Origin: Callorhinchus milii
Lineage: Eukaryota
DNA length: 64,000 nt
Assembly: GCF_018977255.1 (NCBI RefSeq)
Contig: NW_024704761.1
Location: 1,240,001 to 1,304,000, forward strand
Direction of reading: 5' to 3'
Positions 33,701-42,700 of the stretch are shown piece after piece (position 1 is the first letter of the stretch; the number at the start of each line of letters is the position of its first letter). The notes beneath the pieces were generated by a model. The model worked only from the letters and a program-made list of their open reading frames with translations, searched no databases and was not told the DNA's origin. A program made the translations under genes and the position numbers.

Positions 33701-36700
33701 AACACAGGTTCCAATCATCGGCAGCCAAATGACCAGACAGGCGAGACGACTCTATGTTGGCAATATACCCTTCGGTGTCACAGAGGTAAATATAATACTT
33801 TGCATATTTTACCCTTTGTAATGTTGGAATAATAATAATCTTTGCATTTGGTGTAACATCTTATCACGTCATTGAGACATCTCAAAGTACTTCACAAAAT
33901 ATATTGTAAAGTGGATTGACTGTATTTTGTGGATGAAACACATAGACAATCCACATTGGTATGGGTGATGCCAAACGAGATGCTGTGGATAGAGGGTTTC
34001 TGATTAAAATGTGACCATATTATAACATGCCAGTTGGGTTATCATGGAGCATATTGCAGTGCAACAGTTCAGGGTTGTGAGTTGTACCTGACATCACTGA
34101 GCCCCGCTGAACCTGTAAGCTGTGCACAGAAAACCCTCTCATCAGTGGCAATTGCTCTCACAAGCATCTTCATTGGTTGTTGAGGATTCTACTGACATCC
34201 CAAGGCCGACTGTGCCTTAGAACGCAAACACAGCAGGCATACCGCACTTTATTTACAGTGATATAATGTAAAAACTTTGCATGGGTGATTACAATTCAAT
34301 CTTTGAATCAGATTTGTATTATCTACCACTAAATTTAAGAGTAAGATAACCAGAATTTATTACAACTCATCATAACGGGCGTTTGAAAAGAGGTCTTGCA
34401 GGTAGTAAGGAATAAATTGCAGAGATTAAGTTATTGTCCATTGGACTTTATTATAATGATAAGTGCTGGATCCATATAGTCTTAATACCATGATGCGCAT
34501 TTAACAGACTTTAAAGAATACACCTTCTTTCTCAGGAAGCCATGGCAGACTTCTTTAATGCTCAGATGCGTCTAGCTGGCTTATCGCAGGCTCCCGGGAA
34601 CCCTGTATTGGCTGTGCAGATCAACCAAGATAAAAATTTTGCTTTTCTTGAGGTAAGTCTGTATCCTGATATTTTTTGTGGGTATTTTTGTAACTTATTT
34701 ATACTTTGTAAATCCAAAAACCAAATGATACTAACATTGATAATAATAATCCTTGCATTTGATATAGCACCTTATCACATCTTTGAGACATCTCAAAGCG
34801 CTTCACAGAACATACTGTAAAATGAATTGACTGTTATGTTTTGTGGACAAAACGCGGCAGCCAATTGTACACAGCTGTGTCCCACGAACAGTCGTGGATT
34901 GAATGACTAAATTATTTTTTATTATATATTCAACAAAAGACCTAGGTCAATAATGTATTATATGTATTAACTTATTTAAAGGGGAACTGGATAATAATAA
35001 AAACAATAAAAATACCGTAAACTTCTGATAACTCGACTCCTTTGCAGGACTATGGGGTAAGAGTGAGACTAGTTGGGTATCTCTTTCAAAGAGCCTGCAC
35101 AGACACGATGGGTCAAATGGCCTCCTCCTGTGCTGTAAGATTTTATGATTCTATATTTTTAATAAGTTTCCGTTTCACCTAATGTATTTTCAGCATACTA
35201 TTGCTTTGCTGTTTTTCCTAGTTCCGTTCAGTTGATGAAACGACACAGGCCATGGCATTTGATGGCATCATCTTCCAGGGTCAGTCTTTGAAGATCCGAC
35301 GTCCACACGATTACCAACCTCTGCCAGGCATGTCTGAGCAACCTTCTTTCCATGTCCCAGGTCCGTCAAAAAATGCATCGTCCGTGTGCTGGACTTCCTT
35401 TGCAGGTTTAAGTATACTGCATGCCTCCACTGTAATGACAGGGAACCAAAATACCATTTAGGTCAACCAAACGATGGGCTAAACTAGAGAAAAAAACAAA
35501 ACAAAGCAAATTTTTTTCAAAAATATATCTTGTCAAAGAAAATGCAGATACTTTAACAAACAAAAATGCAAGGAAAGTCGGAATCAGAACTCGCACAGCA
35601 GAATAACAATTCTGTGGATGAAGATCTTGACTCTAGGACCTGTACACCTAATCATTGAGTTGTCACCTGCTGAAAGGGAAATGATGTTGGCTTGAGCAGA
35701 TGGCAACAAAATGAATAGGAATATGTTGTGCAACACGGTTTTGTTCAGTTCAAAATAATATTTTCCCCATGTTTGAGTGGTTTTTGTCCTTGCGTGTCCT
35801 AGAATGTTTTTGATGCGTCTGTGAGTAGAGTTTTCAAACACCGTTTGACTAAGGGTTTTGCTAGAATAGAAAATTAACTTCTTCCAATGGTCAGTCCCAG
35901 GACCACCACAACTTTTTCTTCCCACAGCACTTTATTCTCAGAAGATATGCTTAAAATCTCTGGCTTCAACAAGTCACATTGAAGTGCCAGTTCCAGCCAG
36001 GCTGCTCAAAAGGTAACATTGTGGTAGCCTGGCTATATATAACCTCTATCACTAGTTCTCAACTAAAATCAAGTTGTGAAATTTACTGTAGAAGTCCAAT
36101 AACTAAAGGGTTCAGATAATTGAAAAGTGATTTCCAAGATTTGAAGTTCAGAATTTGACTTGATTCAGAAGTTGACATGCTCTCTGGTCACATTAGGGGA
36201 ACAAAAATTCACCTTTGCTCATCCTCTTCCATATATATTCCTGTTTTTTTCGTTTGCCTTTTTGAAAAATCATTTTCTTTCCCATCTCCCTCCCTCATAT
36301 ATATATATATATATTTTTTTGCGCTCTTCATCTCTTTCCATCGTCACTGGTTCTCAATCCCTGCACCTATTGAAATTCTCTCACTTGTGGATTTTGGAAA
36401 CCTGCAGAGTCTTTGTGTTGCGGTTTGGAGCAGCTGGCCCAGCGAGATTCTCCGCCAGCCTGGGAACACGCAATTGACTAGGGCCACATTGGTGACACTG
36501 TAAGTCAGAAGGTTTTTCCAGTTCTGCTTCTGCTTTCCTCTGACCCATACATGGCTTGCTTGCTTTAAAAAGGGATACAGCCATTCTAATTAAGGTGAAG
36601 AAAATAAACAAACCAATTGTTAATTGCTTTGTAAATATTTAAACTTTTTCTAAAAAAACAACTCACGAAATGACCAAGATCCATTATCTGAACCCCCTCT

Positions 36701-39700: not shown

Positions 39701-42700
39701 CTTTTAGTGAAGGAATACGTTTTTTTCAACTATTATTAAGCTTTAATTCTTTATGAAAATTTTTGGTGACTTTCTTTTGAACCCTGTAGTTTTGCATTGG
39801 ATGCATTATTATTTTTTAATATAAAAAGGTTTCATTAACTTTACTGTTTGGTTTATGAACATACCCTTTCCATTCATAGGGGCTTTTCATTCTCAAAACT
39901 GTGATGCTCTTTATATACTGAATTTGGTGACATTTTGAAATGGGGCAGATAGTCTTCAAGGGGTTAATCTCTTAAAGGATGACAGAGAGACCAATTGAAT
40001 TTGATAAATATAAATGGTCTGGAGTCCAGAGTTCCAAAATAATAGTGAAACAACTGGATTCTGTTATTTGTTTTATATCTGTGTACAAGGGGAAAGGTGT
40101 GTGAGTGCTGCTCACTTTGAACTGCAAACGTCCTTTAAATCTATTCCTTTTGAACCCTTTGCATTTTTTTTCAAATTAACAAACTTGGGTGGAAGGCCTG
40201 GGGCTTAGCTCATTAAATGCTGAAAAGGGTAGAGGAGGAAACCTAATAAGTTGAGGTCTAGCAATTGTTAAGCTGATGTCAAGCTTGGGAGTTAAAAGAC
40301 TGGATTTTAGGGGACTCAGGGAGGGTGAAATTACTTAAACGTTTGAGGTCCTGGGAGAGAAATTAATAGGAGAAATAAATGAAGTAGGAGCATGTTGAAG
40401 AAGCAAGGAGAAGGAGGTAAAAGCATAGTTGAGCTATTTGGAGCTTGGGTAATTGACCTATTTTTTAATTTTAAATGTTATAAATTGATATGAGATTATC
40501 AAAACCCCTTTGAAGGCTGATTTGGCTTTAGATCTGACCAAAGCAGTGGAAGCTGGTAAATGCAGTGATAGCAATAACTTAAATTTATATAGTGTCCTTC
40601 ACTTACGGTAATATTTCATAGCACTTCACAAGTACGGAGTCAGTTGCTCTGCAAGGGGGAGGGGTGACAAAGTTGAATAGGTAGGTTTTTAGGTAAGGTT
40701 TAAAGACCGAGAAGGGGCAAGACTTGGGGGTGGGGGGGGGGGGGAGAAAAGGTTAGGAGCATCATTGCTGAAGGCTCAGCCACTGATGGTGAGTCAGAGA
40801 GGTTGGGGGTGCAGCAAACCCGAGTTAGCAAAGTGTAGGGGACCACCAGAAGGGTGCAGGAGGAGGAAATCAGATGAAGAGATGCAAAGGAATGAAGGGA
40901 CTTAAGGTGAGGATGAGGGCCTTGATGTTGATTCATGGGAGACAGAGAGCCAATGCACCCTGGGGTGATGGGCAGGCAGAGTTTGGTGCAGGTGAGCATT
41001 GTGGGCGCCAGAGTTTTTATGCCAGCAGGACATCTCAAAGAGCTTCACAGAATTCACCTGATGTCTGACAGGTGTGAAACAGAACATCAGTGGATTTTGA
41101 ATCAAGAGTAGAGGTGGCAAAGTAGATTTCAGTGTCATTTGCATACATTCACACAAAATGTGTAAACACTTTACAATATGTTCTATGAAGTGCTTTGAGA
41201 TGTGAAAGGGCTGCACCAAATAGTATTATTATTATGTGGAAGTTATCCCCATGTCTCTGCGGATGTTGCCAAGAGTGAGCATGTACATGAGGAAAAGGAG
41301 AGGACTAAGGTAATCCTGCAAGTGTGGGATCATTGAGATGGATAGGATTTGAACCAGGAGAGTGTGTATCATGGAAGTGAATGAGGCTGGAGAGGCAATC
41401 ACGGAGAATGGAGTGGTCAGCGGTGTTAAAAACATGGTCCAAGACTTTGGATAGAAATGGCAAGTTGGAGATTAGTCATCAATTGAATTGGATCTTAGTA
41501 TTTACAAGAATGCTGTACTCAAGGTTCACGAAGCCTGGTAATGCAGGTAGTAGTGAAGCTACCAGTTTATCATTCAGATTTTTGGTCAAATGGTGCTGTC
41601 TCTTGAGATATTTCATTTGGTGGAAAATAGCAAAGATGAATGAACTCCAGCCAGCCAGCTGGGAAGTATTATTCTGTCAGCCAGCAAGGAGACTAACACC
41701 ATTGTAGCTTTGAAGGAAAACAAAACTCTGGCCTCCAGTTGCTGCATGAAACCAGGCATATTGCTTAAAATCTGCCACTTTACGGATTTGAAAGGGAAAA
41801 AAATGTCAGGCCCAGAATAGTCAATAGTTACGAAGTTTAATTTTTGTGTTCATGGTTGGGTGAGGGGGGGAGAGATGCAAATTAAGTGATTAGGAAAATT
41901 GAAGGAGGTGTTCCCCTGTTTTCTGAGCATAGTGCATTGTGTTACAATAATATCTATTGAATATTGGTCTGTGCAGAAGATGCAAGTGATGCCCATTAAT
42001 TGTATAGTTCAGTGCTAATCCTCGACTGGGTCATAAATTTGTCACTGCCCTAGGTCATTGTGCTTTTTCATGCCTGAATATCTTCTTTTAATTTGGCTTT
42101 GCCACTTTGCCAATTTGTTTTTTTTTAAAAAAACAGGAATTTGGTCAGTGCTAAGTTTAAGAACAGGCCTATAGTTACATTATGGTGATTTAGATGTCAG
42201 TCTGACTCAGTTGGTAGCACTCTCATCTCTTGAGTCAGAAGGGTGTGTGTTCAAGCCCCACGTGAGGATTTTGAAATCGTGTCATCTAGGCTGACGCTCC
42301 AATGCAATCCTGGGGTGTGTACTGCATTGCTGGATGTGCCATCCTTCAGATGAGACATTAAACCGAGGTCCCATCTGCCTGTTGAAATGGTTTCTAAAGT
42401 GGACCATCTTGTGGCTAAATTCAAAAAGAGAAGGGAGTTTCTCCTGGTGACTTGACCAACAATCCCCCAAATAAAGTTAGTCATTCACTTCATGGCTGTT
42501 TGTGAGACACTCCTGTGCCTACATTGACTGCCTGCAAAATAGTCACTGCACCTCACAGTAATAAGAATCCTTGCATTTGGTACAGCGCCTTTCACGTTGG
42601 AAGGTCGTCCCAAAGCGCTGACAGGATTTACTGTGAAGTGAGGTGTCTGTATTAGGTAGACGAATGCAACAGCCCAAGTATATCCTGTGAAGTGCCTTGA

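Follow-up and report, generated by a model that had tools for sequence, protein, structure and literature searches.

The window, i.e. the 64,000 nt analysed here (Callorhinchus milii, GCF_018977255.1, contig NW_024704761.1, forward-strand positions 1,240,001 to 1,304,000), contains a U2AF65 gene on the forward strand. Reconstruction of its 11 coding exons yields exactly the RefSeq-named protein P0134. Three constitutive exons frame the region of interest: exon 6 (35222..35360, +), which encodes the end of RRM1 plus the N-terminal half of the RRM1-RRM2 linker and has its main donor at 35361, exon 7 (37119..37198, +), which encodes the remaining linker and the start of RRM2 and has its donor at 37199, and exon 8 (43972..44094, +). 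The exon 7-exon 8 joint was found in run X4, and the exon 8 acceptor serves exon 7 as well as exon C (see below). Intron 6 (35361-37118) comprises 1758 nt and intron 7 (37199-43971) 6773 nt. The first-pass annotation had assigned a transposon-free block to introns 6-7 of a U2AF65 gene, and the rebuilt exons confirm this assignment. The neighbouring genes were assigned by type, one to the short-chain dehydrogenases and the other to the LRR proteins.

In an unrooted tree of 45 chosen rows without an outgroup, the window protein falls apart from human U2AF2 in a second paralogue clade, which comprises chimaera, sharks, rays, and ray-finned fishes (support 100/99). Two other chimaera proteins, P0141 and P0185, cluster with the human type in the same tree. 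Both paralogues are present in each of chimaera, rays, sturgeon, gar, and teleosts. A search of this assembly found no second U2AF65 gene or retrocopy. The paralogue proteins share 82-87% identity and the same domains with human U2AF2 and teleost u2af2a and u2af2b; the two paralogues are 87% identical, and RRM1-RRM2 of the window protein are nearly identical to solved human chains. Orthology to human U2AF2 was ruled out, because the window gene does not group with tetrapod U2AF2 and teleost u2af2a/b. Judged from the tree, it is an old U2AF65 paralogue, so that cross-regulation becomes an alternative to autoregulation.

A BLAST comparison with 40 loci of 10 kb from the same genome and with the window itself showed that 35172-41162 is the longest repeat gap of the window, the next one having 2394 bp. 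In a whole-genome search, all 40 non-self matches listed (40 of 438 candidates scored) lay within 40573-41148, revealing an old repeat that starts at 40573; the end of the block was therefore set at 40572. The resulting block (35172..40572, +; BLAST, genome search, and tiles) has a length of 5.4 kb, is single copy in the assembly, lacks detectable interspersed repeats, and includes intron 6 with exons 6 and 7 on either side of it, extending halfway into intron 7. It agrees well with the repeat-free stretch of about 35150-40570 recognised earlier. In the 40 background loci, one of 553 gaps was at least 5 kb long, and 5 of 960 tiles of 5.4 kb were repeat-free, all five from a single locus.

The block had also been described as rich in U tracts. 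For comparison, we used 5851 nt of non-repeat sequence from introns 2-5, the distal part of intron 7, and introns 8-10. Runs of at least five T were enriched (39 in 5104 nt of the block versus 19 in 5851 nt, p 0.001), as were runs of at least six (21 versus 9, p 0.008). In contrast, the difference was not significant for runs of at least seven, and the T fractions were nearly equal (0.34 versus 0.33), so the description is valid for the shorter runs, with an enrichment of only about 2.5-fold. The claim of at least five strong acceptors was not confirmed, as their number is no higher than expected by chance. Using a simple filter for a pyrimidine tract plus YAG, the acceptor density was at background, with 0.86 per kb in the block versus 0.57 in the other introns (strict version) and 2.59 versus 2.41 (loose version), and four of the named sites (36408, 37784, 37932, and 38152) failed even the loose version. 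The splice-site motifs and both TGCATG motifs were found where they had been reported. With respect to the suggested RBFOX role, the number of these TGCATG motifs is at chance (2 seen, 1.1 expected). The flanking donors at 35361 and 37199, which had been called weak, indeed match the consensus at two of the four positions +3 to +6, but so do three of the eight other donors. An Rfam search gave no match in the block, and RNA folding was no better than that of shuffles (z-scores 1.55, 1.10, -0.87, 0.81, 0.81, and 0.98); the block was therefore rejected as a structured RNA or intronic ncRNA. Outside the block, the same type of search gave a weak scaRNA match and a tRNA-like match at 44326-44392, inside a repeat.

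Splice junctions were taken from assembled contigs of five of the 14 listed runs (X1, X2, X3, X4, and X6), which belong to two studies. The RNA status of all five runs is a presumption made by the program from RNA-like contigs, no holder among those listed being recorded as RNA. Junctions were read as presence only, as one contig may combine several molecules; in the junction listing that includes X6, 376 joints were masked by repeats, and the listing for X1-X4 omits 10 contig pieces. Nascent or partly spliced pre-mRNA would give the same picture in contigs as non-productive forms. The annotation had proposed five exons and had named the absence of junctions at every one of them as an outcome against its model. 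Junctions were found for three, i.e. 36408-36499 (exon A), 38136/38152-38185 (exon B), and 39383-39468 (exon C), but none were listed for 37784 and 37932-37960.

Exon A (36408..36499, +; 92 nt) is a candidate poison exon with a stop codon 24 codons in. It is documented by the joints 35360|36408 in X3 and 36499|37119 in X2 and by the UniRef model P0008, which terminates inside it. The same donor also serves unspliced sequence that continues from exon 6: in an X2 contig, exons 5 and 6 are spliced, the sequence continues unspliced to 36499, and is then spliced to exon 7. A search with the open frame of exon A against 1.84 billion protein representatives returned nothing relevant; two weak multi-stretch matches (41% and 54% identity) were taken as chance. 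Exon B (38136..38185, +) is joined to exon C from its donor 38186 (joint 38185|39383 in X3). Its possible acceptors (38117, 38136, 38139, and 38152) lie in tandem after a long U tract, and a premature stop results from all three starts tested; no upstream junction of exon B is among the junctions listed for X1-X4 and X6. The junctions 35360|36408, 36499|37119, and 38185|39383 were each found in one of four runs. The remaining candidates (37784..37960, +), two acceptors at 37784 and 37932 with a GTAAGT donor at 37961, were seen as motifs, and neither 37784 nor 37932-37960 has a junction among those listed for the same runs, in which contigs show presence only. These sites, and perhaps also exons A and B, are possibly splicing noise.

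Exon C (39383..39472, +) follows a polypyrimidine tract with an acceptor (39343..39382, +; motif and junction) and carries five donor motifs, GT at 39393, 39401, 39459, and 39473, and GC at 39469. Its classification as a decoy/poison exon is based on joints to exon 8, matches in teleosts, and the statistics of the donor cluster. The GC donor, which the annotation had missed, is the one seen in the joints, resulting in an 86-nt exon (39383-39468) with an in-frame stop; the joint of 39468 to exon 8 was found in four of the five runs (X1, X3, X4, and X6) and in both studies. An acceptor had been named at 39383-39400 onward, and it is indeed used, but splicing out occurs at 39468 and not at 39400. 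None of the four GT donors has a junction among those listed for X1-X4 and X6 (presence-only contigs). From upstream, exon C is reached by splicing from exon B (38185|39383) or by read-through, as in contigs of X1, X4, and X6 the sequence between 39047-39084 and exon C is unspliced, and exon C is joined to exon 8. The stretch 39705-39885 has no contig cover in X2, X3, and X4, and joints of exon 7 to exon B or exon C are absent from the chimaera junctions listed (X1-X4 and X6). Four GTAAG motifs lie within 85 nt at exon C, with donor spacings of 8, 10, and 4 nt; no such cluster occurs in 800 kb of background strands, and about 1e-4 are expected in 5.4 kb. The exceptional feature of the block is thus a cluster of 5′ splice sites, not its acceptors.

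It had been claimed that inclusion of most of these exons adds a stop or a frameshift. A premature stop was found in 14 of 15 translated non-canonical forms (intronic exons or read-through, the two linker variants excluded); the exception is the 18-nt form ending at 39400, the sole open one. The stops fall upstream of exons 8-11, i.e. well before later junctions.

The conservation of exon C was assessed with protein models, not with DNA alignments. Its first three residues directly follow exon 7 in 13 of the 198 clade members versus none of 67 human-type proteins (Fisher p 0.04, rows not independent). The 13 proteins come from 11 named teleost species and one contig; for four of the 11 species the match is confined to the three residues, and three of the matching models are marked as low quality by their source. 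The best exon C matches scored 85, 69, and 54 (P0139, P0070, and P0067), and no shuffle (200 per match) exceeded 49. Two weaker long matches, P0029 and P0074, were equalled by 2 and 3, respectively, of their 200 shuffles. The stretch is translated in different frames in different species, suggesting that the constraint is likely to act on DNA or RNA. In P0029, exons 7, C, and 8 are joined out of frame, with a stop, the Umbra and Alosa models stop within exon C, the Cottoperca model P0070 reads it as an open insert of 30 residues, and the eel and tarpon models have a three-residue insert. Both ends of the donor cluster are preserved in teleost models. Two further candidates were rejected: the insert after exon 7 of the human-type chimaera protein P0185 does not represent this intron (157 of 200 shuffles were as good), and one exact 20-nt match in metagenome contigs was due to chance, the contig lacking a U2AF65 exon. 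Chimaeras and teleosts diverged about 450 million years ago. Conservation no higher than neutral had been named as a second outcome against the model, and a recognisable exon C in teleosts is at odds with that outcome.

The same region also sets the length of the RRM1-RRM2 linker, which is changed by -11, 0, or +15 residues through three alternative donors of exon 6. An upstream GC donor at 35328 removes 33 nt (35328..35360, +) and, in frame, 11 linker residues; the joint 35327|37119 was found in X4 (listed as 35324-37116, five letters fitting both sides), and the RefSeq-named isoform X6 (P0142) carries this form. A 45-nt extension to donor 35406 (35361..35405, +) adds 15 residues in frame. 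It is known from protein models, i.e. P0005 and P0006 of the chimaera and eight shark and ray models in which 14 of the 15 residues are identical (P0004, P0007, P0125, P0127, P0128, P0131, P0137, and P0138), and donor 35406 has no junction among those listed (X1-X4 and X6, contigs showing presence only). In sturgeon and paddlefish models (P0206 and P0209) the linker is shorter by five residues. The variants fall in a region that, in human U2AF2, is described as self-inhibiting in a passage of PMC10823583 citing Kang et al. 2020.

Taken together, three exons with stop codons in introns 6-7 are spliced into RNA, and exon C probably acts as a decoy or poison exon that directs transcripts to retention or NMD and would thereby limit the protein. 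U2AF on the internal acceptor and U1 snRNP on the tandem donors would out-compete direct joining of exons 7 and 8; downstream of exon C, the intron would be removed at the GC donor, and the upstream part would be kept, or exon C included. The input could be negative feedback from the level of a splicing factor, most simply the activity of U2AF65, whichever paralogue provides it. The annotation had the U2AF65 level sensed through the polypyrimidine-rich acceptors; an excess of such acceptors is not supported by their background density, and the U-run enrichment (p 0.001-0.008) is an indirect indication of an autoregulatory loop. Selection against insertions in the block would explain why it lacks transposons.

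The identity of the input is the point at which other readings depart. The same non-productive splicing might sense the 5′ splice-site machinery (U1 snRNP, U1C, LUC7-type, or SFSWAP-type factors) rather than U2AF65. In this case, the tandem donors would activate the acceptor upstream of them, as happens in intron 7 of SNRNP70, and a 3′-site factor would be balanced against U1. We regard this as a possibility to be taken seriously, albeit a rather unlikely one: the donor cluster is the sole feature far beyond chance and both its ends are preserved in teleost models, but exon C is preceded by a strong polypyrimidine tract as well, U runs are about 2.5-fold up, and the difference from the preferred explanation concerns the input only. 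It is also conceivable, though unlikely, that the non-productive forms are favoured by human-type U2AF2 or by a tissue factor and that the paralogue serves as a back-up, much as PTBP1 acts on PTBP2 by cross-regulation (PMC1940037). The presence of both paralogues in each of chimaera, rays, sturgeon, gar, and teleosts, the restriction of the exon C peptide to this clade (13/198 versus 0/67, non-independent rows), and the differences in non-productive forms between runs of unspecified tissue are compatible with this. However, an element missing from human-type protein models could still sit in their introns, and paralogues with 87% identity likely bind the same tracts, so that auto- and cross-regulation may coincide.

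The open 30-residue insert of Cottoperca, the three-residue inserts of eel and tarpon, and the in-frame 18-nt form of the chimaera could also indicate a conserved coding micro-exon (9, 18, or 87-90 nt in frame, into RRM2), and splicing of the downstream part first is compatible with recursive, stepwise removal of a long intron. Both are improbable, as the frame is not kept across species, the junction found in four of five runs leads via the GC donor to a stop, the Umbra and Alosa models stop inside exon C, and an insert would likely harm RRM2. We consider it very improbable that the whole picture reflects noisy splicing of an ordinary intron in which transposons are missing by chance. An equally long gap exists in one of 40 background loci, acceptor and RBFOX counts equal the background, and exons A and B come from single runs each, but conservation of exon C over about 450 million years, the donor cluster, and a junction in both studies are hard to reconcile with noise. 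Beyond the decoy function favoured here, we tentatively raise a broader speculation: in jawed fishes, the output of a second U2AF65 gene might be set by an ancient decoy exon that reads 5′-splice-site (U1) or partner-paralogue activity, while donors at the same spot set the length of the self-inhibiting linker, so that one repeat-free module would control both amount and polypyrimidine stringency.

On how the U2AF65 dose is kept constant, we found only a low-confidence prediction for the human gene (PMC6547761); the locus offers a concrete conserved target of 90 nt in teleosts that keep the paralogue. The paralogue may have escaped knock-down studies in fish, e.g. a zebrafish study that names two homologues and describes the phenotype after knock-down of both as modest (PMC4691745). 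Neither element nor paralogue is described in the literature searched, mostly open papers (supplementary tables of NMD, detained-intron, and fish splicing studies may list them), and both are absent from the passages of PMC12934665 and bioRxiv 2020.05.20.107375; PMC11346455, PMC13247117, and PMC7726792 deal, in the parts seen, with U2AF26.

Compared with known systems (cited from excerpts), the human U2AF2 and teleost u2af2a/b proteins belong to a separate clade from the window protein, in which the linker varies by -11 and +15. AS-NMD autoregulation has likewise been proposed for human U2AF2, but its candidate poison exon is a low-confidence prediction (q 0.6, text of supplementary Figure S6C) in the other paralogue (PMC6547761). 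RBM39, SR proteins, and U2AF1 share a conserved stop-adding cassette in a splicing-factor transcript (PMC6547761, PMC10477243, PMC13075997); those cases have binding and knock-down evidence, whereas here several exons across two introns are known from sequence and contig junctions. As in poison exons generally, inclusion places a premature stop far ahead of the later junctions. The switch in intron 7 of SNRNP70 (U1-70K) also combines a non-productive alternative acceptor with clustered 5′ splice sites downstream of it and is conserved to fish; its input, U1C and intact U1 snRNP, is demonstrated (PMC3798272), whereas here the host is a 3′-splice-site factor and the input is putative. The decoy exons of SF3B1 intron 4, OGT, ARGLU1, and DDX39B (Parra et al. 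2018, PMC6097662; Parra et al. 2020, PMC7373989) likewise lie in a large intron of a splicing-related gene, with several short cryptic stop exons and deep vertebrate conservation of the core, which here applies to exon C alone; the contigs that are spliced on one side and unspliced through the upstream part may correspond to their partial retention products. Like decoy exons, the exons described here are cryptic cassettes in introns of more than 1 kb with competing splice sites (five donors at exon C, tandem acceptors at exon B), and conservation is seen for exon C only, via teleost protein models. The alternative donors of the Parra decoys are 7-12 nt apart, compared with 8, 10, and 4 nt at exon C; gene and sequence differ, and the site used here is a GC donor. 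The kind of mechanism is well known from other splicing factors, and the module of this gene probably belongs with those of SF3B1, OGT, ARGLU1, and SNRNP70.

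The U2AF65 gene spans 30713-48070 of the window, which is G000:C20:1240001-1304000. The RefSeq-named U2AF65 protein P0134 was rebuilt exactly from 11 coding exons cut out of the window, so that the block under study takes in intron 6 (35361-37118) together with the first half of intron 7 (37199-43971). Over exon 6, identity to source-named U2AF 65 kDa subunit proteins of Callorhinchus milii is 100%, and tandem acceptors of exon 2 (32670 and 32688) make a difference of six residues between isoforms P0136 and P0134. The gene has two neighbours on the minus strand, i.e. a short-chain dehydrogenase (23164-28788), presumably DHRS7B-like, and a leucine-rich-repeat protein (about 52800-62900). 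A stretch of about 5.3 kb is duplicated in tandem with near identity (about 3900-8800 and 9200-13500). The duplication repeats the same ORFs and adjoins two intronless ORFs (9932-10984 and 17639-18706), which we take to be sulfotransferase-like.

The first-pass annotation had proposed that a transposon-free block of poison or decoy exons serves U2AF65 splicing autoregulation. When the window was compared by BLAST with its own sequence and with 40 stretches, each of 10 kb, of this genome, 35172-41162 emerged as its longest repeat gap. A whole-genome search located an older repeat at 40573-41148, which trims the repeat-free block to 5.4 kb, with limits that agree with those proposed. Of the 553 background gaps, 1 reached at least 5 kb, and 1 of 40 background loci contained a free 5.4-kb tile; the comparison is conservative, because the library of 10-kb stretches overlooks old repeats. 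The block is unusual, though not unique. About 120 kb downstream, at least 6.2 kb are again free of repeats (locus L014, G000:C20:1400001-1410000).

None of the 14 sequencing runs is recorded as RNA; eight were guessed to be RNA, and 23-86% of the words sampled from a mostly intronic stretch were present in these eight. Splice joints were read from the assembled contigs of five runs (X1-X4 and X6), which come from spliced RNA, since constitutive exons are joined at GT-AG sites and the gene is single-copy in the assembly. Run X3 joins exon 6 to the acceptor of exon A (36408-36499) and the end of exon B (38136/38152-38185) to the start of exon C (39383-39472), X2 joins 36499 to exon 7, and X4 contains the exon 7-exon 8 joint as well as one from 35327, through a GC donor, to exon 7. 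Through another GC donor, 39468 is joined to exon 8 in X1, X3, X4, and X6, for X6 as deduced from a 459-nt middle identical to exons 8-10. Contigs of X1, X4, and X6 are unspliced across the 300-340 nt leading into exon C and then spliced to exon 8, while an X2 contig has exons 5-6 spliced, continues unspliced to 36499 and is then spliced to exon 7. These contigs fit RNA in which the upstream part is retained and the downstream part removed, although contigs are not single molecules. RNA use was thus found for exons A, B, and C, but the joints listed for the five runs include none for the proposed sites 37784 and 37932-37960, and likewise none for donor 35406, for the GT donors of exon C, or from exon 7 into exon B or C. 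As predicted, intronic sequence usually brings a premature end, with an early stop in 14 of 15 non-canonical forms containing it; the UniRef model P0008 also terminates in exon A. Within the block, X3 differs from the assembly at 38674 (G>A) and 38745 (T>A), which are likely alleles.

All motifs listed by the first-pass annotation are present at their places in the window. Compared with the non-repeat portions of the gene's other introns, runs of at least five T are about 2.4-fold denser (39 in 5104 nt versus 19 in 5851 nt, p 0.001), whereas the T fraction is nearly equal. The RBFOX motifs TGCATG occur at chance level. The assertion of at least five strong acceptors did not hold, as acceptor-like sites are no denser here than in the rest of the gene and four proposed positions fail a loose filter. 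The exceptional signal of the block is the donor cluster of exon C, and not the acceptors: 39393-39477 contains four GTAAG donors inside 85 nt, plus one GC donor, and no cluster like these four was found in 800 kb of background strands. In the core of exon C (39421-39452), a branch-point-like word lies behind two tandem AG, and an imperfect palindrome is also present; the predicted RNA folding of this core is no better than that of shuffles.

A vertebrate U2AF65 tree of 45 rows, hand-picked from about 190 proteins and built without an outgroup, has two clades (support 100/99), each of which includes cartilaginous as well as ray-finned fishes. The gene studied here sits in the clade without tetrapod rows, and the other chimaera proteins, P0141 and P0185, fall in the clade of human U2AF2 (human-type); their gene was not found in this assembly. 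By this placement, the window's gene is a second gnathostome U2AF65 paralogue. The duplication likely took place before cartilaginous and bony fishes diverged, and a loss in tetrapods is suggested; no named tetrapod protein of this clade is among the best 120 of 1128 and 120 of 1703 matches listed. In the mormyrid Brienomyrus brachyistius, this paralogue has 39 cluster members (P0055, P0225-P0238), many of them on different, often short contigs; either the paralogue has expanded greatly in this species or the assembly is in error.

Conservation of the module was judged from protein models, and evidence from outside chimaera was found for exon C but not for exons A and B. The first residues of exon C follow exon 7 in 13 of the 198 exon-7-containing proteins of this clade and in 0 of 67 human-type proteins, and all exon-C-bearing models placed in the tree belong to the clade of the window's gene. 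Long matches were found in Cottoperca, Eleginops, Xenentodon, Pholidichthys, Metynnis, Umbra, Alosa, and one further contig, and matches of three residues only in Megalops, Conger, Synaphobranchus, and Kryptolebias. The top scores (85, 69, and 54) exceed all 200 shuffles, and two weaker matches are equalled in 2 and 3 of 200. Model P0029 carries exon C between exons 7 and 8 out of frame, the outcome expected from the GC donor. Because the teleost models align to differing chimaera frames along exon C and include the donor clusters at both ends, the constraint appears to act at the nucleotide level.

A separate coding layer is located at the block. Donors 35328, 35361, and 35406 change the RRM1-RRM2 linker by -11, 0, and +15 residues, and the 45-nt extension of exon 6 (+15) is retained in shark and ray models. 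The sturgeon and paddlefish models P0206 and P0209 have a -5 form. As the human U2AF2 linker is described as self-inhibiting in the part of PMC10823583 consulted, linker length may by analogy alter RNA binding.

The block holds non-productive exons that are in use and a conserved core with competing donors. Exon C would recruit U2AF and U1 and, once engaged, compete against the exon 7-exon 8 splice, which would yield retained or NMD-bound RNA. Since the donor cluster is exceptional and the acceptors are not, simple autoregulation has two real rivals. Sensing could be linked to U1, by analogy with SNRNP70 as described in the portion of PMC3798272 consulted. Alternatively, the human-type paralogue could cross-regulate this gene.

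Splicing-factor genes are well known to carry poison and decoy exons; this module is real and is a new instance among them. The literature searched yielded no description of this element or this paralogue. For human U2AF2, the part of PMC6547761 consulted reports one low-confidence candidate exon. Known decoy exons, in the sections consulted of PMC7373989 and PMC6097662, carry alternative donors 7-12 nt apart, and exon C resembles them in its inferred competition with the splice between the flanking exons and in its predicted retained or NMD-bound output.
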